Assembly: GCA_000004985.1 (NCBI GenBank)
Contig: GG738870.1
From: Naegleria gruberi
Lineage: Eukaryota
Strand: one strand, 5' to 3'
Length of the DNA: 64,000 nucleotides
Shown piece after piece: positions 1,094 to 61,336 of the stretch (position 1 is its first letter; each line of letters begins with the position of its first letter). The notes beneath the pieces are model-generated. The model did not search any database and was not told the origin of the DNA. It was given only the letters and a program-made list of their open reading frames with translations. The position numbers and the translations under genes are program-made.

Positions 1094-2284
1094 TTACAAA
1101 AATTTTCTTTGAACAATACTTGCTCCATATTCTCTATATTCAGTACTTGTCAAACACAGGGATGGGAATGTCGAAAGTGAGGCCATCATCATTCCGCCTG
1201 TACAAGCTGCAGTTGATCCCAATGGCTCACTAACTTTACATTCATTACCAGAATTTAATTTCACAAGTTCCTTAGTTAATCTTTGAGAAATTCCCTTAAA
1301 TTGAGAGCTGCCACCAACAAGAACAATGTTATTAAACAAGGTATTTCTCACACCTTCATCACATGACATGATTGAGTTGTAGATGGCACTGTGAATACCA
1401 GTACTAGATTGAACAGTGGTAGGATCAAATTGTGGAGAATCACGTAAACATGAAGGGCTTCCACAATCCCAACCATTTTCAATAGCATTTGGATTGAAAA
1501 GAGCTTCTGGACATCTGATACACTCACCATCCAAACTAATCATACTGCCATCTGGTGTTTCATAATATTGTTCAGTTGGTGCTTTGATTTCAGATTCATA
1601 ATCTTGAGAAACGAAACAGATTCTCTCCTTAATATCTCTCAACATTTCCCAATCAACAGTAGAATAGATCAATCCCTTTTCTGCCATCAATCTGAGGAAA
1701 TACTGATCTAAATTGTGTCCACCAAAATCTAAAGACATAATTCCTTCCTTCAATACCTTTCCATTGATGATTGGAACAATTGAAGTAACTGTATGTCCAA
1801 TATCCAACACAATTCCACTTTCTCTTCCAGAAGCTCGTATAGAAAGGCAAGCTTGATTTTCCAAACACAATTCATCTACCTGGAGTTTTTCAATCAACAC
1901 TTCAACCATCTTTTCTCTATTTTCCAAAGTATTTAACGGAGAATCAGTCATTAATACGGATTTTCCAATTTCCTCATTAATTCTCTTCAAATCATCCAAA
2001 GAATATTTCCAAATCTTTTCAGCATCATCCCAATTACTAACAATTCCCTTACTAATAGGATAGGTTAGTTTCAACATTCCTCTCTTTGAAACAGCTTCAT
2101 CTCCAAAATATTCACTCTTTGATCCGATCATGACTCCTGCTAAGTGTGGTCTTCCAACTGTTGCGGGAAAGCACATCCTAAATTCTTCTTTTTCCTCTGA
2201 TGATGATAATGATGGAGTAAGACCAACCTTCATCCTAAAGGAACCACTATCAATCACTACTGTTTGTTTTTGGGCCATCGACAT
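1094..2284 (-). CDS. actin-related protein (divergent actin-family member)
   Basis: 396-aa ORF with a real ATG start. Segments align to actin: VIDSGS…FPATVGRP (cf. DNGSG…FPSIVGRP), KRGMLKLTYPISKGIVSNWDD (cf. [21 protein letters not shown]), GIVLDIGHTVTSIVP, DIKERICFV. More diverged from actin than the paralog at 7981. Confidence 0.8.
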   Translation of the reverse strand: MSMAQKQTVVIDSGSFRMKVGLTPSLSSSEEKEEFRMCFPATVGRPHLAGVMIGSKSEYFGDEAVSKRGMLKLTYPISKGIVSNWDDAEKIWKYSLDDLKRINEEIGKSVLMTDSPLNTLENREKMVEVLIEKLQVDELCLENQACLSIRASGRESGIVLDIGHTVTSIVPIINGKVLKEGIMSLDFGGHNLDQYFLRLMAEKGLIYSTVDWEMLRDIKERICFVSQDYESEIKAPTEQYYETPDGSMISLDGECIRCPEALFNPNAIENGWDCGSPSCLRDSPQFDPTTVQSSTGIHSAIYNSIMSCDEGVRNTLFNNIVLVGGSSQFKGISQRLTKELVKLNSGNECKVSEPLGSTAACTGGMMMASLSTFPSLCLTSTEYREYGASIVQRKFL

Positions 2285-2553: not shown

Positions 2554-3231
2554 ATGTCTAATACCACTACTAAGACCCTACAACCAGAAGTTGAAGTTAT
2601 TGATTCGAATAACATTTGGTTGATTAAGAATGCTTTCACTCCAGAAGAATGTGCTCAACTTTTAAAAGAAAGTGAAGAAATTGGTTATGGAGAAGCCCCA
2701 CTCACAACTGGACTAAATACCTTCACATTGGACAAGGAAGTGCGAAATAATTCGAGAGCCATGATTGATAATAACAAATATTCAAATATGTTATTCGAAA
2801 GGTTGGCTCAATATCTTCCACAAGATGTTTCAGAATTGAAAATATGTGCTCAGGATGGTTTTTCATTATGTGGTATGAATGAAAGAATTAGATTTTACAA
2901 GTATGCAGCAGGAGAATACTTTGCTCCTCACTACGATGGCTGTTATCAGAAACCTTTATTCCATCTTGAAGTGAATGGTGAGAAGAAAGTTTGTGTCGAG
3001 AGATCATTCATCACCGTGCTTCTCTATCTGAATGATGTCCACTCGGGAGGTGAAACAAACTTTCTCACATCGAGATATGACATATTGCACAGTGTGAAAC
3101 CAAGAACTGGTCAAGTTTTAATGTTCGTTCATGCTAATTATCATGAGGGTTGTTTATTGAATGATCCAAATGAGTTTAAATATGTCATGAGAAGTGATGT
3201 CATGTATAGAAAATTGAGAGATGAATTGTAA
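2554..3231 (+). CDS. 2-oxoglutarate/Fe(II)-dependent oxygenase, prolyl 4-hydroxylase-like
   Basis: 225-aa ORF starting at ATG. Carries an HxD…H iron-binding triad pattern (FAPHYDG … LHSVKP) and a C-terminal basic residue region (RSDVMYR) typical of the P4Hc/2OG-Fe(II) oxygenase fold. Confidence 0.55.
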   Translation: MSNTTTKTLQPEVEVIDSNNIWLIKNAFTPEECAQLLKESEEIGYGEAPLTTGLNTFTLDKEVRNNSRAMIDNNKYSNMLFERLAQYLPQDVSELKICAQDGFSLCGMNERIRFYKYAAGEYFAPHYDGCYQKPLFHLEVNGEKKVCVERSFITVLLYLNDVHSGGETNFLTSRYDILHSVKPRTGQVLMFVHANYHEGCLLNDPNEFKYVMRSDVMYRKLRDEL

Positions 3232-3313: not shown

Positions 3314-4624
3314 TTAATTGAAATGAACATGAATGACCTTTCCATAGCCAATGATTTTTCCATTCTCCCTTAATAGAAATCTTCCTAAAAATCCACCCTT
3401 TTCCGTATAATTTTCCATAAATAAAATGTTATGGATTGGTGTCATGGTTACAATTTTCACCTTCTTTTGTTCTTGAATGGAATTGATACGACAAGAGATG
3501 TGCTGAAGGGAACAACTAACTATAGGAATGGCACCAACTCTAAATCCCTTGACTCCTGCCCTCAGAACAACTTCGGCCTCGAACGAAACGACAGGTTTCA
3601 ATTGATCTAGTTCATCACTTACAATAAAACCTGTTCTGACTAGATTATGTGGAATATCTCCAAGATACACTCCACAAATTGTATTACTATCTACTTGTTC
3701 TACTTTTTCATGATTAATCTCAAGGTCAATAACCTGTCTAGTTACAAATGAACTATTATTAAGTGGAAGTAAAACAGTTTGTCCTTTTCTTAGTTGACCA
3801 CATTGAACTTTTCCACAAATAATTTTTCCAACTCCAGAAATGAACATCTCCTTAATGATAATAAATCTTAAACCAGAGTATTTTTCAAAAACCATCGATT
3901 GAGATATCATCTCAAGGCTTTCGTATAGTGTTGGTCCCTTATACCAATTTAATTGTTGCGAATGACAGAGTAAATTATCCTCTGTAAATATACTGGTTGG
4001 TATTATTTGGTAATCTGTTAGCGATTTTTCGAAAATCTCTTTGAAAATTGGTTCAATCCTCTCAATTGATCTTTTAAATTCATTCTCATCATAATTACAC
4101 AAATCCATTCCATTCACACAAACAACAAACTCCCTAACTTGATTAACTCTCGCAGCAATCAATTGATTTTTCAACTCTTCAACATACTCGTCGTGTGAAT
4201 CCATCATGAAATGAGTATTAATTATGAGAATTGCCACATTTGCCATCGAAATGGCTCCCAACTGATTCTTTATATACATGGACAAAGCTCCAGAATCAAT
4301 AAATTGCAGCAAGGAAGAGTTTTCATCCTTCTCGAAAGAAACAAAGGCCATATTAGCAGAGACATAATAATCTCTACTGCAACGTGTAGCAATAAAGTAT
4401 GGTGAATACTTTCTCGGATAGTATCGATCGGTTCGTGTGGGACACGGATAGGAATTTCGATTTGGATTTTGATGAAAGTGTCGGAAGAGTCCTGCAACCT
4501 CAGATTTTCCACTATCAGTACAACCCATGAGTGCAATGTTTAGAATCTTTTCAGTAGTTTTGGTGGTTGTTGATTGGAGCATTTTTTTTTTGCAAAGTTC
4601 ATCATCACTTTTGATCTGGGACAT
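3314..4624 (-). CDS. eEF1A/HBS1/eRF3-family translational GTPase paralog with degenerate G motifs
   Basis: 436-aa ORF. LNIALMGCTDSGKS matches the eEF1A P-loop (INIVVIGHVDSGKS). The switch-II region reads IDSGALSMYIKNQLGAISMANVAILIIN (cf. [27 protein letters not shown]), with DxxG changed to DSGA and the catalytic His lost. NKxD reads NGMD. Beta-barrel domains II and III follow. Confidence 0.6.
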   Translation of the reverse strand: MSQIKSDDELCKKKMLQSTTTKTTEKILNIALMGCTDSGKSEVAGLFRHFHQNPNRNSYPCPTRTDRYYPRKYSPYFIATRCSRDYYVSANMAFVSFEKDENSSLLQFIDSGALSMYIKNQLGAISMANVAILIINTHFMMDSHDEYVEELKNQLIAARVNQVREFVVCVNGMDLCNYDENEFKRSIERIEPIFKEIFEKSLTDYQIIPTSIFTEDNLLCHSQQLNWYKGPTLYESLEMISQSMVFEKYSGLRFIIIKEMFISGVGKIICGKVQCGQLRKGQTVLLPLNNSSFVTRQVIDLEINHEKVEQVDSNTICGVYLGDIPHNLVRTGFIVSDELDQLKPVVSFEAEVVLRAGVKGFRVGAIPIVSCSLQHISCRINSIQEQKKVKIVTMTPIHNILFMENYTEKGGFLGRFLLRENGKIIGYGKVIHVHFN

Positions 4625-5026
4625 TTTTATTATTAAGGGCTATCAAATACTTGTACATGAAATATTCAGTGAGGATAGCATTGATGGAATAGTCTTCTTA
4701 TTACTGTTGAATGCCGAATGTTAATCGATTCGCATCAACTGCAATTTCTTCAACTCTTTCGCAATTAATTTCACATTAAGGCATTCTCTAGCAACTAGTT
4801 GATTTGCTTGAGTAAATTGGAAACTTGGTTTCTAATATATTACTCAAAGGGGAGTTCTGATATTTCCGTAAAGGCCTTAATTATAACGTTTAAATTTGAA
4901 AAGTCAGATAAGAAAGGTATTGACTTACTTGATGTGACGTGTGGCATCTTTAGGAAAAATTCATTTTTAATATTTGACCCTTTGAAAAAAGCAAAACAAA
5001 TTATCCTGTCTGTTCGACAAGACAAA

Positions 5027-7408
5027 ATGCCAACAATTTATTTCTTCATCTTTTCCTGTATTGTGGCTACCACACAGATGTTTAGTTTAGTTTCGGCTCT
5101 TTCGTTAGAAACAACAATGAAAATAGATGCTAGTCAATCATCATCTTTGAATTATCTATCATCCAATAACAGTTCATCCAATGATAACAGTATTATTAAT
5201 AATTTAACGCCACCCATTGGAGTAATTTTGAATAATTATAACACTTCGGATTTTATAAATCTTATTCTAAACATTACAACAAATATAACAGCCGCACAGG
5301 ACGAATTAGTCATGACTGAAGCAATGCGAACGAATCCAACAATCACAATCATTATCAGAGTGTTACTAACTTTATTTAATTTCTTTCTAATAATTTTGAT
5401 ACTTTCGTTTAGAAAGAAGGAACCAATCAAATCAAAATTTTATATTTCTATGGCGTTGGTATTGGTTAATATCATTGGACACATTCAGGGAATTATTGAA
5501 ATTCTTCCAGGTGCACCTTTATTCTTTCAAAGTTATTGGAATCAGTTTATTTCAGAAAAGTTGACGAAACAAGTTGATGCTCAAACATTTTACAGAAATA
5601 ATTTGAATTCGTATGGTGTTCCAACGTGGCTGGAAAGTTTTGCACTCTTTGAAAACATTTATTGTTTCATTGATGCCTATTTTATTTATGGATGTACTGT
5701 TATTGGATTGGCAATGTATTCGATTCAGATAATTAAACTAATGTTATTGTTGCTGTTGAAAGATAGAAAACAGGCAGTGGCTAGATCATTGGAAGAATTC
5801 AAAAAGAGACAAGTTGAAAAGTTTAAAGATCTCAAATTGAAAGAAGTTTCTTCAGAGACGAATCTTCAAGATCAGAAACCAATTAGTTTGATGAAACGAC
5901 TCTCAAGGAAGATTCTTTTTGTGGAAACAAACACGTCTTCTGAAAATTTGACGAAACAATCAGGTGAATCTTCACCAACCACTAGTGCTAGCTCAGTATC
6001 TAGTGCTCCTTCCACTTCCAATTTATTAGAATCTAATAATTCACAACAATCACAACAACAATTGCAACAAGAATCCTCAGAAGTATCAACTCCAAGATTA
6101 TCTAAAACTGGAGAGAATGATGATTCGTCCAGTTTAGCCTACGAAGATATTGCCCTCGATTTAACAACTGATGAAGATGCACTTTCAACTAGTTACGAAG
6201 AAATTTCAAAAAAGGGAAAATTTGTTAATTTCCTTAAAAAGATTTTAAAATATCAAATTATTGAGCTGAGCTACATTGGATTCTGGTTGACTGTGTGGTA
6301 TATTCTCGTTACAATTGTAATTATTATTCGTACAGAAGACACTTGGAGTAATTTTTTCATTTCTTGGGATTCGTATAGTGGATATTGTCGACATAATGAT
6401 AGAGTTCAGATTGGATATTATTCGATTGCCATCTTGTTCCTAATTTTTGTTTTCATTCCCATTACTTTAATATTCGATTTTGTAACTAGTTTAATCAAAT
6501 ATAGAAAAATTATTCGAATCAATAGAGAAAAGAATAGAAAGACAGAAAACTTTCTCATTTACTATTTTTATGAAACTGATCCTTTCGTTTACAGAACCGA
6601 AGTATTGGGAGTATTAATATTGGACTTTATAGTGGTCCTTACCTTTTTAATTGTGCTTCCAATTGGAGTTAACGCAAATTATTCTCAACAATTGGCGAGT
6701 TCAATACTCCTTTCCATTGGATTGAATTTTATTGGAGGTGTACTTTGTAATCCTGGAATTACAATTTCAAGAACTGTGTGGAATTATTTGGTTGAGTTCA
6801 AGACCAAAAGGGCAAATAAGAAAGATTCAAATGATTCTGATACTATATTTTCATTACAGCAATTGATTTCTTCACCAATTTGTTCTGAATCAATTGATTA
6901 TGTACTTTCCCACAAAACTGAAAGAGGTTTATTCTATCAATATCTGAAAGAAGAATATTCTGTGGAAAATCTACTATTCACAGAAGATCTTATCAAATTG
7001 AGAAAGATCCACAACGCACATATCAGAGCCAAAGTAATGAAAATTAAGGAAATGATCAAACTATACCTTTCCAATAGTGATTCAGTGTTTGAACTCAACG
7101 TTCCAACAAAAGTGATTCAACAAGAGTTGACTAATTTTAGGGAATTGATGGCTTTGTTGGATGAATTGAATTTAAAGGCTACTCAACTTCCTCGTGTATT
7201 TAAGGCTGATTCGAATACTAGATATTTTCCAAATATTGATTCGAATAAGGAAGAAAAGTTGAAACAATTAATTTCACAATTGGGTAGTGGTCGAATATTC
7301 ACAAATATTCAATCAGAGGTTTACAAAAACTTGATGGATTCATATTATCGATTCAATAACTCTAGAAAGTGGAAGGACTATATTAAGACTTCTTCTTCGT
7401 CAGCTTAA
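5027..7408 (+). CDS. polytopic membrane protein with C-terminal RGS (regulator of G-protein signalling) domain
   Basis: Listed ORF 4799..7408 begins at a TTG. The first ATG at 5027 (MPTIYFFIFSCIVATT…) gives a signal peptide/first TM. About six or seven hydrophobic helices interrupted by a Ser-rich cytosolic insert. The C-terminal segment SIDYVLSHKTERGLFYQYLKEEYSVENLLFTEDLIKLRK fits the RGS-box pattern (E/S-EN-L-x-F/W). Confidence 0.55.
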   Translation: MPTIYFFIFSCIVATTQMFSLVSALSLETTMKIDASQSSSLNYLSSNNSSSNDNSIINNLTPPIGVILNNYNTSDFINLILNITTNITAAQDELVMTEAMRTNPTITIIIRVLLTLFNFFLIILILSFRKKEPIKSKFYISMALVLVNIIGHIQGIIEILPGAPLFFQSYWNQFISEKLTKQVDAQTFYRNNLNSYGVPTWLESFALFENIYCFIDAYFIYGCTVIGLAMYSIQIIKLMLLLLLKDRKQAVARSLEEFKKRQVEKFKDLKLKEVSSETNLQDQKPISLMKRLSRKILFVETNTSSENLTKQSGESSPTTSASSVSSAPSTSNLLESNNSQQSQQQLQQESSEVSTPRLSKTGENDDSSSLAYEDIALDLTTDEDALSTSYEEISKKGKFVNFLKKILKYQIIELSYIGFWLTVWYILVTIVIIIRTEDTWSNFFISWDSYSGYCRHNDRVQIGYYSIAILFLIFVFIPITLIFDFVTSLIKYRKIIRINREKNRKTENFLIYYFYETDPFVYRTEVLGVLILDFIVVLTFLIVLPIGVNANYSQQLASSILLSIGLNFIGGVLCNPGITISRTVWNYLVEFKTKRANKKDSNDSDTIFSLQQLISSPICSESIDYVLSHKTERGLFYQYLKEEYSVENLLFTEDLIKLRKIHNAHIRAKVMKIKEMIKLYLSNSDSVFELNVPTKVIQQELTNFRELMALLDELNLKATQLPRVFKADSNTRYFPNIDSNKEEKLKQLISQLGSGRIFTNIQSEVYKNLMDSYYRFNNSRKWKDYIKTSSSSA

Positions 7409-7980: not shown

Positions 7981-9168
7981 ATGAACAAAAGTCTACCACC
8001 ACCACTCTCTACCAAGAATTATCAACCTGTTCTCTGTGAACCCAGTCAAAATCCAACATTAATCATTGACAATGGTTCTTCCAATTCCAGAGTTGGTTTC
8101 TCATTTGAAGACATTCCTGGTTCTGTATTTCCTACAGTGTTTGGCAGAGTAGGAGGTAGACCGATTTATATAGGACCAGGTATCGCTAGGGAAGGATATG
8201 TTGGCCATGAAGCATTGTCCAAAAGGGGAATTGCTTCATTGAAATATCCTATTAAGAGAGGAATTGTAACTGATTGGCAATTTATGGAAAAGATATGGAG
8301 CCATAATCTTATTTTGGAAATGAACATTGCTATGGAGGAGCATTGTGTTTTATTGACAGAAACTCCATTGAATCCAACAGCAAATCGTGAAAAGATGTGC
8401 CAATTAATGTTCGAAAGGTTTCGTGTACCAGCAATGTGTGTTGCTGTTCAAGCTGTGTTGTCTTTGTTCGCTTCAGGTAGAAGTAGTGGAATAGTGTTAG
8501 ATTCAGGAGGTGGAGTTTCAAATGTTGTTCCAGTTTATGAAGGTCTTGCCTTGCCACATGCCATTTCTAGACAAGAATTGGCAGGTAGCGATGTGACTGA
8601 TCATTTGATGACATTGTTGATGGATCGTGGTTATAGTTTTATAAGTGCTGAACGAGATATTGTGAATGATATTAAGGAAAAGATGTGTTTTGTAGCTTTA
8701 GATTGTGATTCTGAAAAGAAATTATTCGAAAGTTCGATTCCAACAGCAGATTCCTCATATGAGTTGCCTGATGGAAATGTTATCAATCTAGGTTGCGAAA
8801 GATTCATTTGTCCAGAACTGTTATTCCAACCAAACATGGTGGAAATGGAAGAAATAGGTCTTCATGAATCCATACACAACTCTATCCGAAAGTGTGACCT
8901 CGATATTCGAAAGCAATTGTATTCCAACATTCTTCTCGCAGGAGGGTCTACTCAAATTAAAGGATTTTCTGAGAGATTGTTTAAGGAGTTGAAAGAAATT
9001 ACTTCTTCCTCTGTGGAATTCAATATTGTCACCCCACCAGATAGAAATAATTCTTCTTGGATTGGTGGAAGAATTCTTTCGTCCATGTCAACTTTTGGAT
9101 CAATGTGCATGTCCAAAGCCGAATATGAAGAGATTGGACCTGGAATAGTTCATAAAAAATGTTTCTAA
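7981..9168 (+). CDS. actin-like protein (divergent actin paralog)
   Basis: 395-aa ORF starting at ATG. Strong actin similarity across the whole length: IIDNGSS…FPTVFGR, KRGIASLKYPIKRGIVTDWQFMEKIW, VLLTETPLNPTANREKMCQLMFERFRVPAMCVAVQAVLSLFASGRSSGIVLDSGGGVS, DIKEKMCFVALD, WIGGRILSSMSTF. Confidence 0.85.
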   Translation: MNKSLPPPLSTKNYQPVLCEPSQNPTLIIDNGSSNSRVGFSFEDIPGSVFPTVFGRVGGRPIYIGPGIAREGYVGHEALSKRGIASLKYPIKRGIVTDWQFMEKIWSHNLILEMNIAMEEHCVLLTETPLNPTANREKMCQLMFERFRVPAMCVAVQAVLSLFASGRSSGIVLDSGGGVSNVVPVYEGLALPHAISRQELAGSDVTDHLMTLLMDRGYSFISAERDIVNDIKEKMCFVALDCDSEKKLFESSIPTADSSYELPDGNVINLGCERFICPELLFQPNMVEMEEIGLHESIHNSIRKCDLDIRKQLYSNILLAGGSTQIKGFSERLFKELKEITSSSVEFNIVTPPDRNNSSWIGGRILSSMSTFGSMCMSKAEYEEIGPGIVHKKCF

Positions 9169-9413
9169 TAAATACCTGAGTGTTTTATTATTGGGAAAGT
9201 ATCAATTCAATTAATCTTAATTGAAATGATTCAAATCGTTCACATTTTAAAAACTTAAAGTTTCACTTTGAAATAAATTTATGATGATGTACCAACTAGA
9301 ATTTTTCCTAATAATATTGTTCCAATATTTTTCTAAGTTCTTGTTTTGCAAATATTTTTATAAATTTAATTGAGGACAAAAACCAAATTTGCAAAGGATT
9401 GTTATTTAAAGAG

Positions 9414-10417
9414 TTAATAAGAAATCTTAGCAACCAGTGTGTCAAAATCAAATGTTGAATCTCTATTCTTGGCACAACTAACATATAAGCAATCACCATC
9501 TGCAAATCCAAACCTATCCCCAAATAAAGAGGCAAATAAACTTTTCTCTTTGGGAACATACTCTGCATCACCATATCCAAACAGGTAATTTTTAGTGTCC
9601 GTGTTAAATGCCATGGATTTATAATAGAAATCAAAATCTCCATCTGTAACGTCATACCAAAACAATAGGGGTGTCTTTGGAATATCCAACCATGTGATGG
9701 AATCTTCAATTCTGAATTCGTTGGCAATATTCTATTCAATTCTTCACAATTCAATTGTAAAATCAGGGAATGATCTGATAATTGACCACACCATTCTTTT
9801 GGAATGTCTGCACTTCCTCCAAGCTTTGACATTCCTTTAGTTATTTCCTTAGTTTCATCCCTATCCAATCCAATACTCCACTTTGTTTTTTCCAATATAT
9901 TAATCCAAGTTCTATGATGAATTCTAAAAGAATCTTCCAAATCCCTCTCAGAATGGAATGAATAATATGTTGATCTATTTTCAGGATTTTCCCATACCTT
10001 GTTCAATTTTTCCAATTCATCGACCGTTCGTCTAATACCTCTAGAAGAGCAATTAATAAATTTAATTAAATAACTATCGAAACCAGTGAGTAATGGAAAG
10101 TACCCTGACAAACAAAAAACTTTCCACTTTTCACTCAATTGAATAAATAATCGAAACAAGCATACAGTATTCTTTCTAAATTTTTTACATTCAGCCTTCA
10201 ACATGATCTGTAATCCCTTCAATGATTTATCTCTTTTAATCATTACTTCCATTCGATTTGAATAAATTTCATCAGAATATGTTTGCATAATTTCATTCCA
10301 TTCTTGAGAAATTAATTTACAATTTTCCAAATCTTTTACATTGGCAAGCATGGATAGAAAGTAACAAATAAATTCCTGATCCGATGAGTGAAAGAGTGGC
10401 GCTAGATCTTGAGACAT
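9414..10417 (-). CDS. hypothetical protein (reading frame broken near 9700)
   Basis: 369-aa ORF 9308..10417 starts at ATG (MSQDLAPL…). A second ORF at 9414..9689 in another frame extends it (…ITWLDIPKTPLLFWYDVTDGDFDFYYK…). Likely one gene with a short intron or frameshift near 9690–9730. No domain recognised. Confidence 0.35.
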
Positions 10418-10533: not shown

Positions 10534-11688
10534 CTAATTGGTTGGTATTTCTGTAGTTTTTCCAAACAAGGCCAATAAAATACATCCTGGCACTAAAAGC
10601 ACCAAAACACTTATAAAGAATTGAAGAATTGCCTTCCATCCTCTTAATTCTCTGAAAAATACTAATCCACATATTCCTGTAATGACCATTGCTGTTTCAG
10701 TAAGTGGCATACCAATGGTCAATCCAAGTGGAGAAACTGAAACATAATAGGCAAAGAAATTTCCAGTTTGCCACAAGAATGCTGTTAATGCAGGAAATAT
10801 TGAAAGTTTGAGATGGAATGGAACTCTCTTTTTAAATCTAATCAAGTAATAAACGTAGTAAACAATTAAAATTGCTGTTGTAATGACAAACGATCCAATT
10901 CCAAAGGCGACCATATAGACAAGTCCTGTATCTTCATCTAAACGAGATGGTACGAACATACTTCCACCAGTTATTCCACATAATACCGAGGCTACTAATC
11001 CAATGAAATATCGTTTAGAATTTTTCAAAATCTTGATAAACTTTTGAGATTTGGTTTCATAAACTCCAATTGTTGATTCAATCTCTGATAATTCAGAATA
11101 TAGTGTTGGATCATTCACAGAAGGATAAATAGGAACATCACTACTAATATTCTCCTGTTGATTTGTGGAATTTTCTTGTTGATAAAGTGGTGTTGTTTCA
11201 GTATTATTTTCCTGTCCAGACTCTTCAACACTTGCATTGATTGAAGTTTCAGATTGTTTTTCAGCAACAGGTTCTGGATTATTCCACTTACTGCAAGTGG
11301 CAGTTCCAAAAATACCAATAATCATAATAACCAATCCAAAAACAGTCAAATAAATATTTCCAATTTTAGATTGAAACAATGTAACACCCCAAATGAAATT
11401 GGTAATAATCACACAACCGGCCCAAGTTGATTGAGCAACAGCAGCTCCAAGATACTCCACAGCCACAATGGAAAACAATGAAGAAGGAACCCAAATTCCA
11501 CTTCCTGCCACAGCCCACCAACTCCATTTAAACTCATTCCAAGCTAGAACAATTAAACTCATCAATCCAACCACAAGAGAAAAGTAAAATTGAAATACAA
11601 TCGGATCAAATTCAACATTTCTAACCCATTTAACTTTCATCGGCAAGACAAAAGTTCCCCATGTCAAAATACTGAAATGTGTCATCAA
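10534..11688 (-). CDS. polytopic membrane protein (about 10 TM helices, transporter-like)
   Basis: 384-aa ORF with ATG at 11685. Two hydrophobic halves are separated by an Asn/Ser/Glu-rich loop (…NASVEESGQENNTETTPLYQQENSTNQQENISSD…). Drug/metabolite-transporter-like topology. Family not confidently identified. Confidence 0.45.
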   Translation of the reverse strand: MMTHFSILTWGTFVLPMKVKWVRNVEFDPIVFQFYFSLVVGLMSLIVLAWNEFKWSWWAVAGSGIWVPSSLFSIVAVEYLGAAVAQSTWAGCVIITNFIWGVTLFQSKIGNIYLTVFGLVIMIIGIFGTATCSKWNNPEPVAEKQSETSINASVEESGQENNTETTPLYQQENSTNQQENISSDVPIYPSVNDPTLYSELSEIESTIGVYETKSQKFIKILKNSKRYFIGLVASVLCGITGGSMFVPSRLDEDTGLVYMVAFGIGSFVITTAILIVYYVYYLIRFKKRVPFHLKLSIFPALTAFLWQTGNFFAYYVSVSPLGLTIGMPLTETAMVITGICGLVFFRELRGWKAILQFFISVLVLLVPGCILLALFGKTTEIPTN

Positions 11689-12214
11689 TAATGATAATGA
11701 TGATACCTACCAAACAGAAACTCCAACCCATCCAAACCATTCCGGAACCTTATCTCCACCATTCGTTCCATTAGTATTATTATTGGAATTATTTTGCAAA
11801 AGTGTGTAGGATGAAATTTCATTAATTATTGATGGGATGGGATAGAGAGAATTTAGCATCGGAGGAAATGCACTCATCACTGATGATGACGCTTGTTGCG
11901 TTATTGGTGGTGCAACCATAATGATGTGAGACAAAAGTTGTCGTGTATTTTTTTTGTTAAAATTCCCAAGAATCTGGGAGGATTCTGCTTTATTCAAAGG
12001 ATTTGGTGAATTCTGCTTGATATTCTCGAATAATCATATATTTAATCCAATTATTGAATGGAATGTTACAGTCAATGTTGCTATTCTACCTAGCTATAAC
12101 TAATACACATGTGGTTCAACTCTCATTTGAAGTTGGTGCATATTAATATCGGCTTTAAATTGTAAAGCCTTAAGTACTTTAAAAAAAATAACAAACTACT
12201 TAATAAAAATACTA

Positions 12215-14126
12215 ATGGCCTCATCACCAACGAGAATTTTTGAAGCCTACGAGATGGTAAGCTATATTGGTGAAATTGAGAACCAACGCACACAATCAAT
12301 ACAAGAACTTGTACCTCTAAAATCAAAAGATCATAACATTTACCTTATGAACGACAGATATGAAATTGATTGTTTCCCTATCGATTATTCTATTCATATT
12401 AAAACGCATCCATTCAAATTTTCCCAACTAAAGAACTCCTCTGAAGCAGATATTTGGAAATTGATCAAGAGGATTGCTCTTCAACAAAGTATATTTAAAG
12501 GTAGATTTATTGGTTTGAAAGGAAAAGACGGCAAGGTTAAAACTGTATCCGAATTTAAGGCTTTTATAGATCAAGTTGATATTCAGACAGATTTAAAGTT
12601 CGTTATTGTTAAAGAGAGGTTTGAGAATGTATTTTCTACCATTGAATCAAGGCTAAACCAATTAAATTCCTTAGAAAGGAACACTTGTTCTATTATCACC
12701 CTGGCAAAGGACGCTTCCTTTAACTCAAGTGCATTGGAAGGGAATATTCACAGCAACAAAGGACGAATTTGAGGCATCCGAAAGTGAGGATGAAGATTCA
12801 CTCACTCCTGATACTAAAGAAATACGAGTACTGAGAAAGATGCATGAAAGATTCCAAACCGATATAATTAATGGAAAGGTTTATACACTCGATGAAGAGC
12901 TACTGTTGACAGAACACAAAGAAATGGCCATTGGTCTTGGAGAGGGTGCAGGAAGATTCAGAAGTGTAAATGTTTATGTTAAAGGATCTTCCCACAAGTT
13001 TGCACCTTATGATACAATAAGAAGCAAGTTGGCATCTGTTTTAATGATTTTCTACTCCAAAATCACCAGCGCCAATTCGTTGGAAGAACGAATTAAGGCT
13101 GCAATTTACATCCATTATGAAATTGTTAACATTCACCCATTCAGAGATTACAACGGAAGAATGGCAAGATATATCATGAACTTAGTTTTATTTCAGTATT
13201 GTAGAATTCCTCCGGTATCAATATTGCCAGGAATTAAGGATGAATACTTTGCTTCTGTTCGCGAAGTTGATAAGAATAATGATTATAGATTTATTACTAC
13301 CATCATTACAGAATCAATTATTAGGTCTATCGAAAAAGCATTTTATTATACTCACATACAGGATGGAATGGGACTATTGTTGAATAGATTTACATTGGAT
13401 CAGCTTGCAGAATATTGTAAATCTAACAACATTACCACTGACGAAAGTTCCAAGTCTAAAATGATAAGAGATATTTTGAGACTCTCTAATAGAATTGGAG
13501 AATTTGCTTTTGTGTTGGAGTTGGAAAAACAAGATTTACAATCAATAGTTCTGGACAATAATCTATCCACTTTTTCTCAATTGCAAACATGTTTAATAGA
13601 GATTTTATTTTCTAATCCAAACACCAACCTGAAACAATTTCTCAATTTATTCAACACTGAAGGTTTAGACAGATTCTTGGAATTATTAAGAATGAAAGAT
13701 GAGTCCTCTAAGGAAGGAAAAATTACAGCTATCATGGAAGAAGTATTAATATTAGGTATGAGAATCGGATTTGGTAATATGAAGGAAGAGAACATCTCTT
13801 CTTTATGCAATGAACTGAAGATCTCTTCATTTGGTTCCAAACTTGAAAACATTCATTCAATGTTTGGTGTTATTTATCCTCATTACTCTAGATTTAAACA
13901 TTTATTATTTAAAGAATACATTTGGGATATTAAGAAAGGTATTTCTTTGGAACAATTATATCAATTTCATTACTATGACTTACTCGTTTATGCAAAAAAA
14001 CAACAATTGAATTTAAAACATAAATCCAAGAAGAGCATTTGTAAGAATATTTTAACCAGTGGTCATATTAAGAGACTTAATGAGAATGACGATTTGTTGC
14101 AAAATCTCAAGAAAAAGAAGTTATAA
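12215..14126 (+). CDS. Fic (Fido) domain protein, putative AMPylase. Two ORFs (12215..12772 and 12729..14126) in different frames.
   Basis: HPFRDYNGRMARYIMNLVL matches the Fic core motif HPFx(D/E)GNGR (D/E-G read as D-Y-N-G here). ORF1 starts at a real ATG. ORF2's listed start is GTG. The frames overlap over 12729–12772. Confidence 0.65.
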
Positions 14127-16701: not shown

Positions 16702-18207
16702 TTACTGATTTGAAAATTTAAATCTATTAATTAAATCAGCCAAGTCATTCACACAATGAGTTTCAATCTCCTCAAATAAATCATTTCCAAAATAATATTC
16801 CTCAGATTCAATTTTTGAAATGATTAATCGTTTCCTCAATTCAACATTTTCAATATTCAATTCTGCAGGAGCACCAATTGTTAGAAATTGTTCCAAAATA
16901 AACTCTGCTGCCATTTTCTTATTGTGATAATTCTCCTTCTTGTATTGTTGAATAGATTTCCAGCAGAGAAGTGATTCTGGACAGTAACATCGTCTGGCAA
17001 AGTCCAACAATTTCTGATAATAATTCTCATCTTCCAAATTGCTTGCTACTTGCGAATCTTTGTTATTGGATAGATTACCTGTTGAATCTAGACGTGCTGA
17101 CCTATTCTTCTTGAAACGGTCCAAATAAATCTCCCAAGCAATTGGTCTCAATACTGTAATGATAATTTCCAAACTTGCAAAAGCGAATAGGAATAAACTA
17201 TATGGAATAATATAATCAACCAATGTAATATATCCATTAATATTACCCAAAATTACAAATAGCGCCAATCCAATTACTTGCGTAATGATAATTACAATAG
17301 ATTCAGTCTTGATATTCCAGGCATCTCTATCTGCCATTAGTAATAGAATTATTGAACCAATTTCAAAAATGAGATAGATCAGCGTAAGGCAAGACACCAA
17401 TATTAGCCCATTAATTGTTAAAACACATCCAAATCTGAATTCAAACATTCCAGGGTAGACAAATAATTGAGAAGCTCCATTCTCAAACTTTTTCCCAGTC
17501 TTGTCAATTCCAAATTCAATACCAGCCATCAAGAGCCATAACAGTGTATTGAATAGAAAGCAAGTAATGTACACAACCGCCACAAATTTGTAACTGGTCA
17601 AGAATTGTAATGTTTTGATTTTAAACTTCATGGAAAAATTAGTTTTCATCAAGGAATAATCCATCTTGTTGGCAACAGCTGCATTACTTGGTATTTCATC
17701 AGGTATTTCCATATTATAAGTATCCACAACACTCTGATCAGATAAACTCTTAGAAGATTCCACCTTTTCCACTGGCACACTTTCCAAATTGTTATCATTC
17801 ACTTCATTTTCCAGAGCTATCTCTTGCTTCACTTCCATCTCAATATTGGAAGATTTACTTTCCAATACTTTCTGTTGTAATTGATTCTCAAATAGTTTCA
17901 TCTTGACCTTATTCAATTTATAACTCGAAAATACACGAATGCATCGACACGTCGAGGGAAGTGTCATTATTGGACCCAGACAGAAGCACCACGAGTAGAT
18001 TGCACATGGAAATAACTTTCTTCCAATTAAAGTCCTAATACAGAATATTGTGATGAAGAAAAAACTTGAAAGTAGAGTTAGAATGGAATGCGAAAGGTTT
18101 CGTGCTCGGATACTTTTCGAATTTTGTTTAAATATTAGTCCAATAATCGAGAGAATGATGAGTGAGAAGTAGTAGAGAAGAAAGAGAGAAGTAATTCCTA
18201 CAGACAC
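16702..18207 (-). CDS. polytopic membrane protein with C-terminal RGS domain (paralogous architecture to 5027..7408)
   Basis: 501-aa ORF; listed start is GTG, so the true start or an upstream exon is uncertain. N-terminal TM cluster, soluble acidic insert, second cluster of 4 TM helices. C-terminal NYYQKLLDFARRCYCPESLLCWKSIQQYKK…FILEQFLTIGAPAELNI fits the RGS box. Confidence 0.55.
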   Translation of the reverse strand: MSVGITSLFLLYYFSLIILSIIGLIFKQNSKSIRARNLSHSILTLLSSFFFITIFCIRTLIGRKLFPCAIYSWCFCLGPIMTLPSTCRCIRVFSSYKLNKVKMKLFENQLQQKVLESKSSNIEMEVKQEIALENEVNDNNLESVPVEKVESSKSLSDQSVVDTYNMEIPDEIPSNAAVANKMDYSLMKTNFSMKFKIKTLQFLTSYKFVAVVYITCFLFNTLLWLLMAGIEFGIDKTGKKFENGASQLFVYPGMFEFRFGCVLTINGLILVSCLTLIYLIFEIGSIILLLMADRDAWNIKTESIVIIITQVIGLALFVILGNINGYITLVDYIIPYSLFLFAFASLEIIITVLRPIAWEIYLDRFKKNRSARLDSTGNLSNNKDSQVASNLEDENYYQKLLDFARRCYCPESLLCWKSIQQYKKENYHNKKMAAEFILEQFLTIGAPAELNIENVELRKRLIISKIESEEYYFGNDLFEEIETHCVNDLADLINRFKFSNQ

Positions 18208-20544: not shown

Positions 20545-23500
20545 TTACTTTTTGATACCAATGAGGGCACTGTTGAGTTTGCTACTGTCAATGTTACCAC
20601 CTCCATCGAGATCATCACCTCCAGCTCCTCCTCTTGCTCCACCTCTACGGAGAGCAACTGATTTGGCAGCTGTGGCAAGTTTTAATTGTTGCATCTTTTC
20701 ATCCATAGCTCCTCTTCCTTCACCTCCACCAACTGTGGATTTGTTCTTAAGTACATCAAGTTTTTGCTTGGCTGAATTGATCTTAAGTTGTTGTTTGGCA
20801 GCTTCCTTCTTAACCTTTTCTTCTTCGGCCTTCTTTTTCTTTTCTTCTGCCTTTTTGGCTTGTTCATTCTTTTCATTGGCCTGTTTGAATTGTTGCATGA
20901 ATAGATCGATGAGAGCCAAGAATTTATCAGGTTCCTTTTGTAAATCTTCTGGTCTTTCATCAAATGACTTGGCAAGAGAATCAATTTCAGTTTTCATAAT
21001 CTTGAATTTAGCTTCAATACCTTCCAATTCATCCTTAACTTTTTGTTCAAAGCTTTCCATTGTTGAAACGAACTTGTCTTCTTCAGAGGTATTTTCCCTA
21101 GCTTTTGTAATTTGTTGTGAAAGTTGAGTGAGACACTTCTTCAATTCGTTGATATCATCTTCAACTGATCCAACCAAAACACGTGTAGCTGGTTGAATAT
21201 GAGTTAATTGAGTATCAAAGTCCATCAAGTGTTTCTTCTTTTCTCCAATGAAATCGACAATGTACTGGAGTAAACTAGTTTTACCATCACCTGATTTGGT
21301 GTCAGCAAGTTTTTGCAATGATTTGAGCTTGAAACCAAATGATATTTTCTTCTTTTGTTGACCGTTCAAAAAGTTACCAAATGTAAGAATGACAGCAAGA
21401 ATTTCCATGAATTTTTCACTTTCTCTAGCTTCCTTACATCCCAAAATCATATTTTCAATATCTGGCTTAATTTTTGAAATCATTTCATTGAAACGGAACT
21501 TGAATGACCAAGCATCCAATCTTCCAATCAAGTTAGGTATACCGTTCATGACACGGAAGAATTTATCTGGTTCAGCCAATTCATCCATCGGTCCATCATA
21601 TCCCATCACAGTATCAACTTCTTCTTGTTCTGGAGCAATTTGCTTAATAGTTCCAATATTATCAGCAGTCACAACTGCTTCATCCATAGCAATAATAGCT
21701 TTTCTGAGCATATCATATGATACACCTCTGATACTACCTAATTGGAGTGATACAGAGTAACTACGCTTAGCATCAAGCAATGATTTAACTTCCTTCTTCT
21801 TTTCCTTTGGTTCTGCTTTTTCACCTTCTTTTTCTTTCTTTGCTGTAGAGAATACAGTTGACAATTCATCAAGATTCAGCTTGGAAATAATAGAATTGGT
21901 TTCTTGAGCAATATTCTTCTTAATGAAAATTGTTTTTGCGACATTGTTCTTGTTGATAGCATCAAAGTGAACTTGACGAGTTGTTTCAGTTGGTGCCTTA
22001 GTTGGCAATGTTGGTAAACCATCACCAACACCAACACCTCTTCCACGGCCCATCATTGGCATACCAGGTACACCAGGTACTCCTGGAATACCAGGAACAC
22101 TTGGCACTCCTGGAATACCCATACCAGGTGGCATAGGAACACCTCCCATACCAGGTGGCATTGGTACTCCACCACCCATTCCAGGTGGCATTGGAATACC
22201 ACTACCAGGAGGCATTGGAATACCACCAGGTGGAGGAGGAATACCACCCATTCCTGGAGGCATTGGAATACCACCCATTCCAGGTGGCATTGGAATACCA
22301 CTACCAGGAGGAGGAGGAATACCAGTTCCAATAGGAGGAGGAGGAATACCCATTCCAGGAGGTGTTGGAATACCTACACCAATTGGTGGTGGAGGAATAC
22401 CCATTCCAGGAGGTGTTGGTATATCACCACCACCCAAAATTGGAGGTGGAGGAACACCAACTCCAGGAGGAAGAGGAATATTACTAGTTGTAGGTGCAAG
22501 TGAAGGATCTTCTTGTGTTGGTGGATTCTTCTTTAATTGATCCCTTTCTGTTTCCAATTCTTTCTCCTTCTTTTTCAAAGTTTCAATCTTGGTATTACAT
22601 TCAGAAATTAATTTCTTAACATTGTCCTCCTCTTTGGTCCAGTGTTTTTTCTTATCATCGAGTACCTTCTTTGCATGTTGGACTTGTTCATTGTTTGCCT
22701 TCTTTGAAAAGACTTCATTCTTAAGTTTTTCAATTTCTTGGTGGAGTTGAGTGAGTTCAGCCTTAATGTGGGAGTGCTTTTCTTGTTGAGTAGCCTTTTC
22801 CTTCTCAGTTTCAGAAAGCTCACTTCTAGTTTGAGCTGTTTGTTCTTCAATTTCTTTCAAGAACTTTTCCTTTTCTTCAGAAAGGGAATTCTTCTTCTTT
22901 TCAATTTCTTCCAAAGTTTTGGAAATTTCAACAATTTTAGTCTCGTACTCTTGAAGAATAGATTCGCGTTCTGATTGCAAGTTATTAAGTTGATATTGTT
23001 GGGTTTTGACTCTGTCAGCAAGTTGTTTTTCCTTCTCTGTTTTGATTTTCATGTCTTCTTCTGCTCTCTTTGGTGCCAATCCAGCATCAACCAAAAGTTT
23101 AATCTTGCTCCAATTTTGAGCTGATTGTTGTTCGGTAAGAGACTTGTCAATAGCCACCGAGTTGTAAATGATCAATTCAGTTAACAATTCATAGAGCATA
23201 TTTTTCAAAGGTTCATCATCGGAAACTTCATTCAATTTTTGTTTAAGAAGCTTGACAACATTTACAGAATCTGATAAATCATTTTCCAAAAATTCTTTTT
23301 GACAAACTTCCAGTTCACCAGCTAAAACTTCCATTTGACTGTTCAAATCAGTAATAAATTCTTGAGCTTCCTCATCTTCCATAGATTGAACAGATTTTTC
23401 CAAGCTTTGATTCTTGAGCTCTGTAATTACTTCCAAACATTTCAAATTTCTAAATTCCTTCTTGAACAAGGATTTGGTACCTTCATCAGGAGATTGATCC

Positions 23501-24658
23501 AATAATGTATTGAACAAGAACAATGCATAGTATGCATAGTCGAGATTAGATTTTGTCATTCTTTGAATAATATCATAAAATCTGGTCTTTTCTCTCTTGA
23601 CAAGTCTATAGTGACTCAATGCACTGACAACCAAACTAAAACCATGACTTGCCCAACTGGCCATGACAATCAAAATTTGTAAAATATCACAAGCTGCTTC
23701 AATATTTGGAGTATCTAAAATGAGAACCAAGTTTTTCATGGCATCTTTTTCTGCCAAAAATTCTTCAATACCCACATTGGTATTCAACAAGGCCTTCAAG
23801 GCAGCAATACAGAGGGATTGTTTTTCCAAATCCTCTACAGTAGCAACCATATTTGTGGATGTGAGTGTTCCACTTTCGTGCTCAGAGACAGCAGTTGATG
23901 TACCGCCTTGCTCAGAGTTGGATTGGTGATGTTGATGGAAATTTGGTGTATAATCTTCAGAGTCAGAATATTCTCCTTGATCGATTTCCATATTATCGGA
24001 GGCAGGTGTTACATCTTCCTCAGATTGTTGTTTTCTAGAAAGAACATTGGTCATATTCAAACAATGGATCAAATGTTTGATACCTCCTTGCATAATAAAT
24101 TGGTTGACCCATCGAATTGGCTTGTCAACCAAAAGTTCAGCAATACGAGCCAAACGTGCAGAATCATAATTGTGTTTTTCCCATTGAGAAAGGAGTACGA
24201 AAGGAGTATCCTCATCAGCAGTTTGATCATTATCGTTTTTAAAGTAATACAAACGTCTATTGATTATATTGTATTAACATGATTGATTATATTGTAATGA
24301 AACATTTTAAACATAACATCCAAAGAGTTACATACCTGACTTTTTCCTGTACAGTTTTAGTTGCCAATTGTTTTCTTCTGATACTATCTGGTACTCCCAT
24401 TTCCACTAACATTTCATTGAAATTTCCATTGACATCATCGTCATTCCATTGTAATTGTTGTTGGTAGGCAAGAGCATTAAAAGGTTCTCTATTAAAACCT
24501 CCATTATTACTACCACCAATGTTTGATGATGAGTGGGATGGGGAATTATTTGGTGAGTGATGAAGCGCCGAAGATGATGAAGAAGCAGCCTGAATCGTCA
24601 GTTGCTGCGAGTGAGAGAGCGCGGAAGTACTCTTTGATGTATTCTTTTTTGGCGCCAT
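20545..24658 (-). CDS. formin (GBD/FH3 – coiled coil – FH1 polyproline – FH2), two exons
   Basis: Real ATG at 24656–24658 (MAPKKNTSKS…). Intron at about 24257..24335 (GTATGT…AATAG, 79 nt) joins in frame to RLYYFKNDND… The FH1 region has more than 15 tandem GIP(M/P)PPG(M/S)GG repeats (about 21990–22520). The FH2 hallmark region follows (…NYLLDSK-like lasso/knob, GNFLNGQQKKKISFGFKLKSLQKLADTKS). Confidence 0.9.
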
Positions 24659-24985: not shown

Positions 24986-25059
24986 GCAGCGATAGATCAG
25001 TTGGTTAGATCGTAAGCCTAACACGCTTAAGGTCGCGGGTTCAAGCCCCGCTCGCTGTA
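24986..25059 (+). tRNA. tRNA-Val (anticodon AAC)
   Basis: Folds as GCAGCGA|TA|GATC|AGTTGGTTA|GATC|G|TAAGC|CTAACAC|GCTTA|AGGTC|GCGGG|TTCAAGC|CCCGC|TCGCTGT|A. All stems paired, with a G1·U72 wobble. Anticodon loop is CT-AAC-AC. TTTT downstream. ORF 24974..25231(-) is an artefact over this gene. Confidence 0.85.
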
Positions 25060-25428
25060 TCATTTTGTTACACAATGTTAAATCTTTGAACTTGTTTAAA
25101 TTAAAGAACTTTGAATTGTTAGGTTTTACTTTGACAAACTTTATTTTATGAAATTTGTTGAAATAAAAACGCAAAGAAGATGGTGCATTTTTAGATACTA
25201 ATTGTAAGACAAAGCATGATAGAGGACACATATGGTGCTCTTCTCTTGTGAGCTAAACTCGCTGGTGTAATTTGTAGGCATCCTTGAGGATTTGGAAGTA
25301 ATAGCTTGGTCTATTATTAACACCCTTCACATTCCTAGCGTGGCTGTGAATCAAAGTTGGGTTTTATTGGAAATGTTGATTAGGTATTAAGTACCCAAAC
25401 AAAAGGTGTTGGTGAACTAAAAACGTAA

Positions 25429-25517
25429 GGCGGCTTAGCACAGTGGCAGTGCATCAGTCTTGTAGACAGAAATGCTGAGATAACTGAGGGTCGAGGGTTC
25501 AATTCCCTCAGTCGCCT
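25429..25517 (+). tRNA. tRNA-Thr (anticodon UGU) with 17-nt intron
   Basis: Folds as GGCGGCT|TA|GCAC|AGTGGCA|GTGC|A|TCAGT|CTTGTA[intron GACAGAAATGCTGAGAT]A|ACTGA|GGGTC|GAGGG|TTCAATT|CCCTC|AGTCGCC|T. Perfect 5-bp anticodon stem, intron at the 37/38 position, TTTT terminator. A Tyr(GTA) reading was tested and rejected because the stem register then fails. Confidence 0.6.
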
Positions 25518-25538
25518 TTTGTTAATTGATAATCAAGT

Positions 25539-26549
25539 TTATGCTAATTTTTTTAATGTTTCTACTGATCCATCCCATGGCAATATTGAGACTACCATTC
25601 TTGAAACAATCGAAACAGCAGGTTGGAAACCTACAACATCCTTAGCCAACGAATATTGATAATCTACAATGCTATCTCCAAAACAAGTATAGAATTTCAT
25701 ATTCACATCCAGACCTTTTTGATAAAATTCCACACCAATAACATCTCCCTCTCGATTATTATTATTTGCCCTGGAGTATTCGCACTGCCCCCTATAAGAT
25801 TTAGAGTGAGAATGAACGCAATATCCCACTCCATTAGAGGTTTCCTTTCCGATATAATAATGGATTGCAGAGCTGGTTGAATTTCTGCTTTGATTCTCCT
25901 TATCATCAATTCCAATAACAATTCCCCAGGCATTTGAACCTTCATTGTGATAATTTGTCAAATGAATAGCCCAGAAATATCTGAATTCTTGTATCAATTT
26001 TTTTCCAACTATACAAGTTTCCCAATCACCATTCAAATTTTTATGACATGAATGAAAACAATGGTCATTATTAGTAAAATCAACACACGAATGATGAGCT
26101 TCATGCTCATAACTGTTAATAAAAGAAGGAATTGATAGTGGAAATCCCGATCTATCAAATGAAAAAGCCTTAAACAAGCAAATCAAGAAAAAATAGGCAT
26201 TCTCTTGATGATCGTCATACACTTTACGAAACTCTTCCTCTTGCAAATAGTTCATAATTCCACTCATAGTATCCTTCTCCTTAAATTCTTTAATTTGCAA
26301 TGAAAATTCATCAAATAATTTTCTCATCACTCGTCCAACATTTAGCTCCTTCTCCGATAATTTAAATTCATCCTCCTGATGCTTAATCATTGATCGGAGA
26401 GAATTTTCCCAAACACTTGACGAAGATAAGAGAATACTTCTCAATGATCGGTTGATTTTCAATAGAGAGAATAAAGACTTTACATCCAAAAAGGAGCACA
26501 CAACATCCTCCAACACTTCTGTTGGAATTGCATTGATCAGACTTTCCAT
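25539..26549 (-). CDS. F-box / SPRY (B30.2-like) domain protein
   Basis: Listed ORF start 26684 is TTG. The first ATG gives MESLINAIPTEVLEDVVCSFLDVKSLFSLLKINRSLRSIL, a canonical F-box. The C-terminal GDVIGVEFYQKGLDVNMKFYTCFGDSIVDYQYS resembles the SPRY core. Confidence 0.55.
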   Translation of the reverse strand: MESLINAIPTEVLEDVVCSFLDVKSLFSLLKINRSLRSILLSSSSVWENSLRSMIKHQEDEFKLSEKELNVGRVMRKLFDEFSLQIKEFKEKDTMSGIMNYLQEEEFRKVYDDHQENAYFFLICLFKAFSFDRSGFPLSIPSFINSYEHEAHHSCVDFTNNDHCFHSCHKNLNGDWETCIVGKKLIQEFRYFWAIHLTNYHNEGSNAWGIVIGIDDKENQSRNSTSSAIHYYIGKETSNGVGYCVHSHSKSYRGQCEYSRANNNNREGDVIGVEFYQKGLDVNMKFYTCFGDSIVDYQYSLAKDVVGFQPAVSIVSRMVVSILPWDGSVETLKKLA

Positions 26550-61239: not shown

Positions 61240-61336
61240 TTTTTTTTGGTGAGGTTTACTAATCGCGAGTTGCACTTTTATTGTAACGAAGATGGAGTTT
61301 GAAGTTTTTTTCGACTGTTTTTTGGAATAATTTATG

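Follow-up and report, generated by a model that had tools for sequence, protein, structure and literature searches.

Duplicates of the translation elongation factor eEF1A in protists have been described as 'often highly divergent' by Atkinson (2015; PMC4342817). Additional file 2 of that census assigns 37 translational GTPases to the amoeba Naegleria gruberi, including 12 eEF1A, 1 aEF1A (approximately 13 copies of EF1A type in all), nine eEF2, 1 eRF3 and 1 Hbs1, and no EFL. For protists that use EFL, Kamikawa et al. (2013; PMC3699394) report 're-modelled' divergent EF-1alpha proteins that are thought to be limited to auxiliary, non-translational functions. A third point of reference is Ski7, a paralog of Hbs1 that only some saccharomycete yeasts possess (PMC2613156). 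Here we analyse a 64,000-nucleotide stretch of N. gruberi contig GG738870.1 (assembly GCA_000004985.1; hereafter the window) and in particular the gene NAEGRDRAFT_67982, which occupies positions 3314-4624 on the minus strand. A first-pass annotation, made from the DNA letters, had described its product as an eEF1A/HBS1-family GTPase paralog with eroded catalytic motifs and possibly a Ski7-like pseudo-GTPase. We consider it fairly probable that NAEGRDRAFT_67982 is instead a lineage-specific, eEF1A-derived paralog that is probably hydrolysis-dead and that, if functional, would serve as a non-hydrolysing binder.

NAEGRDRAFT_67982 is a real, intact gene of N. gruberi. Its single-exon open reading frame (ORF; 3314..4624, minus strand), read from the sequence, runs without interruption from ATG to TAA over 436 codons, with the stop at 3314-3316, and the 436-residue product is 100% identical to the N. 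gruberi protein XP_002676810.1 (EFC44066.1, D2VGH6), which identifies the window as nuclear DNA of this species. In the public annotation this is a "predicted protein" that starts at Met15 (codon 4580-4582); no mention of the locus tag or accession was found in the literature or supplements. Six codons 5' of the ATG there is an in-frame TAG (4640..4642, minus strand, read directly from the sequence), which rules out a contiguous N-terminal extension, and only 27 residues precede the G domain. The gene on the 5' side is a divergently oriented RGS-domain gene, whose ORF opens at 4799 and has its first Met near 5027; the intergenic DNA amounts to approximately 400 bp.

The encoded protein belongs to the EF1A/EF-Tu family by a margin that excludes chance similarity; it is highly divergent and has all three domains of the fold. 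The Pfam model GTP_EFTU matches it at 39.8 bits (E = 4.8e-10), above the cut-off of 26.5 bits, and the models for domains 2 and 3 (GTP_EFTU_D2 and GTP_EFTU_D3) give weak, sub-threshold matches. In a phmmer search of the PDB, the top matches were archaeal aEF1A (7e-26 and 3e-24), and the second PDB alignment covers the full length of the protein, placing residues 28-433 onto residues 7-427 of 1jny. The NCBIfam EF-1-alpha models match at 5e-42 and 6e-39 without reaching their cut-offs (144 bits against 502 for NF008969, and 133.8 bits against 540 for TIGR00483), and the EF-1alpha model score is the lowest among the relatives examined. AlphaFold2 (AF2) run on the single sequence gave an unusable model (predicted local distance difference test, pLDDT, of 34), and this was replaced by a model from a 72-sequence alignment. 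The latter has a pLDDT of 89.4 and a predicted template modelling (TM) score of 0.88, and consists of a G domain followed by two beta-barrels, with low confidence only in the first 25 residues and in switch I (approximately residues 50-90). According to Foldseek, the model superposes on GTP-bound aEF1A (3vmf/3wxm) with a TM score of 0.81; the top matches, all at a TM score of approximately 0.8, comprise complexes of GTP-bound aEF1A with Pelota or with aRF1, 80S ribosome-bound eEF1A, Hbs1L and eRF3. The modelled domains are in a closed, GTP-like arrangement. The domain II barrel (approximately residues 250-340; 3605..3877, minus strand) keeps R253, G271, G276, G318 and G332, with G314 changed to Asn, and the domain III barrel (approximately residues 345-435; 3320..3592, minus strand) keeps the LGRFxxR...G signature (L413, G414, R415, R419 and G428) and lacks a loop of approximately 17 residues between residues 383 and 392. 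Both the family assignment and the retention of the beta-barrels, as given in the first-pass annotation, are thus borne out.

We then located the GTPase motifs, all on the minus strand, with HMMER and two independent MAFFT alignments. The placements agree, so that the differences from the family are not alignment artefacts, and misalignment, which had been raised as a possible explanation for them, is ruled out. The P-loop GCTDSGKS (G1; residues 34-41, 4502..4525) fits the GxxxxGK[ST] consensus and is intact, with Cys-Thr in place of the His-Val of the family. At the end of switch I (G2, RDYYVSANM; residues 84-92, 4349..4375), Ser89 replaces the conserved Thr. Switch II (G3; residues 110-114, 4283..4297) reads DSGAL where the family has DxPGH, and the Pro, the Gly of DxxG and the catalytic His are all replaced. 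Ungapped alignments give P to G, G to A and H to L; in one MAFFT run the Pro is gapped, so that G is paired with G and A with H. Under either alignment the switch-II His is absent, and there is no His anywhere in residues 100-130. In G4 (NGMD, N171-G-M-D174; 4103..4114), the Lys of NKxD is lost and the Asn and guanine-specifying Asp are kept, and the G5 region (PTSI; residues 209-212, 3989..4000) retains the conserved Pro and Ser (S211). The earlier description of the P-loop, switch II and NKxD, including the loss of both the Gly and the His, was therefore correct in every particular.

The erosion is unevenly distributed. The 72-sequence alignment has 70 columns with a conservation of at least 70%, and NAEGRDRAFT_67982 keeps 45 of them, at an overall identity to its relatives of only approximately 24%. 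Besides the barrel residues listed above, which include the complete L413-G-R-F-x-x-R419...G428 stretch, the retained positions are G34, G39, K40, S41, D110, K119-N120, N171, M173, D174, P209, S211, N217 and W227-Y-x-G230 in the G domain. The losses fall mostly in nucleotide-binding and switch elements, i.e., the Thr after GKS, switch-I residues, the switch-II Pro-Gly, the NKxD Lys and G162. Preservation of the fold together with erosion of the catalytic centre argues against neutral decay and for a relaxed or altered constraint specifically on GTPase function. The motif state supports assignment as the signature of a pseudo-GTPase or a hydrolysis-impaired GTPase.

In translational GTPases the switch-II His is universal; the sarcin-ricin loop brings it into position, and the His in turn activates the water for hydrolysis. 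The Gly of DxxG contacts the gamma-phosphate and drives the movement of switch II, and the Lys of NKxD packs on the guanine. In NAEGRDRAFT_67982 these three positions carry Leu (or Ala), Ala and Gly, respectively, so that ribosome-triggered GTP hydrolysis would be very unlikely and nucleotide affinity would probably be lower. Such a protein should be unable to work as a cycling factor in elongation, termination or rescue; if it has a function, it would most likely be an eEF1A-shaped binder that does not hydrolyse GTP, either nucleotide-locked or nucleotide-independent, with a Naegleria-specific role. One could argue that the protein is still an active, specialised GTPase that hydrolyses GTP in a non-canonical manner, via a residue supplied in trans or from elsewhere in the protein as in HAS-GTPases, and that it delivers a tRNA or a tRNA-shaped protein. 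Binding of Mg-GTP is indeed plausible, since the P-loop is there, Ser stands in for the switch-I Thr, and the Asp of switch II and both the Asn and the Asp of NKxD are present; moreover, the predicted domain arrangement is GTP-like, and the core of domains II and III is kept along with the GRFxxR motif. Such activity would nevertheless have to survive the loss of the ribosome-activated His and of the adjacent Gly and Pro, the missing NKxD Lys, the change of the hydrophobic-gate Val of the P-loop to Thr, EF-1alpha model scores of 134-144 bits against cut-offs of 502-540, and the deletion of the domain-III loop. We regard this alternative as improbable.

Where in the family NAEGRDRAFT_67982 belongs was assessed against reference sequences, of which human eRF3a (5lzt_jj), human Hbs1L (5lzw_jj) and yeast eEF1A (1f60_A) were confirmed against the PDB and that of Sulfolobus aEF1A was taken from the 1jny alignment. 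Bit scores are highest for aEF1A (83-94), followed by eEF1A (70-74), eRF3 (53-74), Hbs1 (54-57) and CysN (40), and the weakest family match is Ski7 (4zkd_A; 13.8 bits, E = 0.17). The nearest relative, the N. lovaniensis protein P0004 (see below), scores 174-177 bits with eEF1A, 165-176 with aEF1A, 115-117 with eRF3 and 101-103 with Hbs1L. A first neighbour-joining (NJ) tree of all 150 matches had saturated distances (approximately 1.5 or more) and was uninformative; it was superseded by a labelled, bootstrapped NJ tree of 38 sequences and 423 columns. In the latter, Hbs1 (88%), eRF3 (78%) and Hbs1 plus eRF3 (66%) form clades, and NAEGRDRAFT_67982 falls outside all three; it is placed towards eEF1A, in the company of divergent EF1A-like sequences of eukaryotes that have long branches. 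Moving outward from the protein, 259 of 300 replicates reached canonical eEF1A as the first labelled class, 22 reached aEF1A, 5 eRF3 and 1 Hbs1. A 12-residue insertion ('WYKGW...') that we considered as an eEF1A marker was discarded, as only yeast eEF1A has it in the reference set and plant-like eEF1A lacks it. By sequence, the ancestry of NAEGRDRAFT_67982 is on the eEF1A side of the family, outside Hbs1 and eRF3, and affinity to Hbs1 or Ski7 is not supported: nothing points there.

These results bear directly on the proposal of a Ski7-like adaptor, in which a pseudo-GTPase descended from Hbs1 would link stalled ribosomes with the Ski complex and the exosome. In its favour, the motif pattern is alike in kind (P-loop kept, catalytic His lost) and the predicted fold superposes on Hbs1L and eRF3 at a TM score of approximately 0.80. 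However, Ski7 is the poorest match in the family, the phylogenetic check gave the eEF1A side with an Hbs1 affinity in a single replicate, and the closest relative is itself eEF1A-like. The N-terminal region in which exosome- or Ski-binding motifs were to be sought is restricted to the 27 residues before the G domain; an extension is neither present nor would it fit upstream, given the TAG at 4640-4642 and the short intergenic DNA. In addition, Ski7 is restricted to some saccharomycete yeasts (PMC2613156), and N. gruberi has a separate Hbs1 according to the census (PMC4342817), which also answers from the literature whether a canonical HBS1 exists elsewhere in the genome. We therefore consider a Ski7-like adaptor highly improbable. 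Of the pseudo-GTPase reading in the first-pass annotation, the erosion of the catalytic centre with retention of the P-loop and barrels stands, and the HBS1/Ski7 affiliation and adaptor function do not.

We searched 1.84 billion cluster representatives exhaustively with HMMER, using NAEGRDRAFT_67982 as the query, and obtained 2130 matches at E <= 0.001. Below 1e-30 there were only the query itself and P0004, which is N. lovaniensis C9374_000474 (5e-36, 28% identity), and the same scan yielded no ortholog of at least 50% identity. Word-indexed searches, either with the protein or with a profile of NAEGRDRAFT_67982 and P0004, found only the query, P0004 and two bacterial CysN-type proteins; they are too insensitive for the other N. 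gruberi paralogs, and the paralog count is for this reason taken from the literature. In N. fowleri, P0004 has a syntenic ortholog, FDP41_004214 (P0043), and the gene order at both loci is kinase, SUI1, PARG, ADI, the EF1A-like gene and RNase III. A candidate Hbs1-like relative of P0004, P0015, was rejected, since it is a fused canonical eEF1A from Meloidogyne.

NAEGRDRAFT_67982 is 25-28% identical to P0004 and P0043, and the three Naegleria proteins have several derived features in common: GxTxSGK[ST]E (N. fowleri P0043 has Leu at the Thr position, and the other two match as written), ARVN, VCVNxMD with loss of the NKxD Lys, and IPTS. NKxD takes the form NGMD in N. gruberi, NMMD in N. lovaniensis and NRMD in N. 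fowleri genomic DNA. Switch II differs among the three: N. gruberi has DSGAL, N. lovaniensis DIGGH, with the His kept, and N. fowleri DIGGD, with the His lost. P0004 and P0043 thus form a Naegleria-specific gene pair, the nearest relatives detected, in which degeneration of the GTPase motifs is likewise under way. The domain-III loop that is missing from NAEGRDRAFT_67982 is present in P0004. P0004 and P0043 are 68% identical to each other, with a ratio of nonsynonymous to synonymous substitution rates (dN/dS) of approximately 0.21 at a dS of approximately 1.0, which suggests that the Naegleria subfamily is constrained. The N. lovaniensis ortholog of the 2-oxoglutarate (2OG)-oxygenase gene adjacent to NAEGRDRAFT_67982 has unrelated neighbours, with no EF1A-like gene there. 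P0004 and P0043 may be orthologs or paralogs of NAEGRDRAFT_67982, and synteny is uninformative either way.

The N. fowleri gene has a feature of its own. On VFQX01000036.1 (locus L002, approximately 10956-12443), the P0043 frame changes from +3 to +2 near 11450 and from +2 back to +3 near 12342; the public model bridges these switches as introns and carries a fused 336-residue N-terminal stretch. The frame switches are either assembly indels or real lesions, in which case the gene would be a pseudogene. A further reading of NAEGRDRAFT_67982 is that it is left over from the expansion of eEF1A in N. gruberi, a relic with little or no function that is drifting towards loss with a frame that happens not to be broken yet. 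Its extreme divergence (an identity of approximately 24% to any other sequence, and an EF-1alpha model score below that of every relative examined), the lack of an ortholog of at least 50% identity in the scan, the discontinuous N. fowleri gene and the existence of many redundant paralogs in the census (PMC4342817) are all in line with such a fate. Drift is argued against by the 436 intact codons in an AT-rich genome (33% GC, uniform at approximately this value across the 64-kb window) in which approximately 7% of random codons are stops. The structurally critical Gly, Pro, Trp and Arg residues are selectively kept, 45 of 70 conserved columns surviving against 24% identity; the predicted fold is confident and compact; and the related Naegleria pair has a dN/dS of approximately 0.2. 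On balance, we deem a relic unlikely.

Loss of the switch-II His is not limited to this gene. Among the best 150 of the 2130 matches, it is missing in approximately 45 representatives (approximately 30%). Those with a named source come from Anaeramoeba flamelloides and Naegleria, and many others are from environmental eukaryote contigs; the His-less representatives include P0007, P0008, P0009, P0012, P0014, P0024, P0033 and P0131. Examples of switch II within this set are DTPGR, NTPGL, DTPGC and DTPGK, and some of the proteins also have a degenerate NKxD. A divergent copy from Tetrahymena thermophila has kept the His (DIIGH). A giant-virus origin of NAEGRDRAFT_67982 was rejected: full-length EF1-type matches in BFVD are at most 15% identical, and no viral relative was found in IMG/VR. 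It is tempting to speculate that NAEGRDRAFT_67982, the N. lovaniensis and N. fowleri pair and the His-less Anaeramoeba and environmental proteins constitute a recurrent class of eEF1A-derived, non-hydrolysing 'decoy' or adaptor proteins under purifying selection, although we would give this proposal only a small chance of being right. If true, members of such a class might act as non-cycling binders of tRNA-like ligands, of ribosomes or of the cytoskeleton, and could provide a lineage-specific layer of translational or cytoskeletal control in protists.

Several observations weigh against our reading of NAEGRDRAFT_67982 as a probably hydrolysis-dead, eEF1A-derived paralog. HAS-GTPases have a hydrophobic residue at the catalytic position and still hydrolyse GTP by other means, and the GTP-binding and hydrolysis state of NAEGRDRAFT_67982 is read from motifs only. 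The dN/dS value belongs to the related N. lovaniensis/N. fowleri pair and not to NAEGRDRAFT_67982 itself, and the N. fowleri frame switches could mean that the subfamily is dispensable. The neighbours of P0004 and P0043 are not present in the window, i.e., there is no synteny. Finally, the grouping with the two other Naegleria proteins has a bootstrap value of only 54% on long branches and, given the large distances and the simple NJ method, long-branch attraction among divergent sequences may have contributed to the placement.

With respect to the surroundings of the gene, two divergent actin-family genes are located within approximately 3.5 kb on either side, at 1094-2284 (minus strand) and 7981-9168 (plus strand; Pfam Actin 290 and 390 bits), and a formin gene (FH2 and GBD/FH3 domains) is found at 20545-24252 (minus strand). 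eEF1A is an actin-binding protein in other amoebae; the proximity of the actin genes to NAEGRDRAFT_67982 may be a coincidence. Convergent with NAEGRDRAFT_67982, and separated from it by 82 bp, is a 2OG-Fe(II) oxygenase or prolyl-4-hydroxylase-like gene (2554-3231, plus strand), which has a 71%-identical N. gruberi paralog (P0178) on another scaffold and 49%-identical orthologs in N. fowleri and N. lovaniensis in non-syntenic surroundings. The divergent gene on the other side (4799-7408, plus strand) encodes a large multi-pass membrane protein with a Ser/Gln-rich linker and a C-terminal RGS domain (Pfam RGS, 1.4e-8). Further along the window, a Fic/DOC-domain protein (12729-14126, plus strand; Pfam Fic, 1.1e-13) in this eukaryotic genome has a possible role in AMPylation. 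Genes for tRNA-Val(AAC) (24986-25059, plus strand) and tRNA-Thr(TGT) (25428-25518, plus strand) lie approximately 370 bp apart, and the length of the latter (91 nt) allows for an intron. Many long ORFs in the window (243-726 residues) have no Pfam match at E <= 1e-4, at 338-1069, 9308-10417, 16702-18207, 25539-26684, 29944-32124, 34333-36438, 45884-47881, 51762-56014 and 59968-63231; these are presumably lineage-specific Naegleria genes.

The finding is modest and descriptive. Under its "predicted protein" label, NAEGRDRAFT_67982 could be taken for a functional elongation factor or a surveillance factor of the Hbs1/Ski7 type, and the evidence says that it is neither. The number of divergent eEF1A and eEF2 copies in N. 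gruberi is unusually high, and a protein with the fold and the P-loop and without the His offers an entry point to ask whether such additional copies work as non-hydrolysing binders or are mere remnants of evolution. That unrelated protists have repeatedly lost this His suggests that the question is a general one. We found no literature on 'pseudoGTPase' together with 'eEF1A', and the loss of the catalytic His in NAEGRDRAFT_67982 is not described in the available parts of PMC3699394 or PMC4342817. The protein is individually undescribed and belongs to the known N. gruberi eEF1A expansion and, more widely, to the divergent protist EF-1alpha paralogs. Because its best match is to archaeal-type models, it is a candidate for the single "aEF1A" entry of the census; the supplements do not carry its accession.

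Set beside the described systems, NAEGRDRAFT_67982 is like canonical eEF1A and aEF1A, its best-scoring reference class, in three-domain architecture, in length and in end-to-end alignment, and it shares with them the P-loop, both the Asn and the Asp of NKxD, WYxG and, at the C-terminus, GRFxxR...G. It differs from them in an identity of only approximately 21-24%, in the replacement of the switch-II PGH, the NKxD Lys and the switch-I Thr, and in the missing domain-III loop of approximately 17 residues. With P0004 and P0043 it has in common an eEF1A-like rather than Hbs1- or eRF3-like character, the derived motifs and a cluster in the NJ tree (54%), whereas the gene neighbourhoods differ. Unlike Hbs1 and eRF3, it has no N-terminal extension ahead of the G domain. 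The likeness to Saccharomyces cerevisiae Ski7 (4zkd/4zke), which has an EF1-family fold and a degenerate catalytic centre and binds GTP without hydrolysing it, is an analogy only: NAEGRDRAFT_67982 is comparable in motif state (P-loop and NKxD Asn/Asp kept, His lost), but Ski7 is Hbs1-derived and saccharomycete-restricted (PMC2613156), whereas the Naegleria protein appears eEF1A-derived, lacks the N-terminal domain and matches Ski7 at just 13.8 bits. NAEGRDRAFT_67982 resembles the protist copies described in PMC3699394 and PMC4342817 in being a fast-evolving extra EF-1alpha beside a principal elongation factor. The cases of Kamikawa et al. co-occur with EFL, unlike the situation in N. gruberi, for which the census lists eEF1A copies and no EFL. 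The role proposed here for NAEGRDRAFT_67982 would, by analogy, parallel that of the re-modelled divergent EF-1alpha proteins of those protists.

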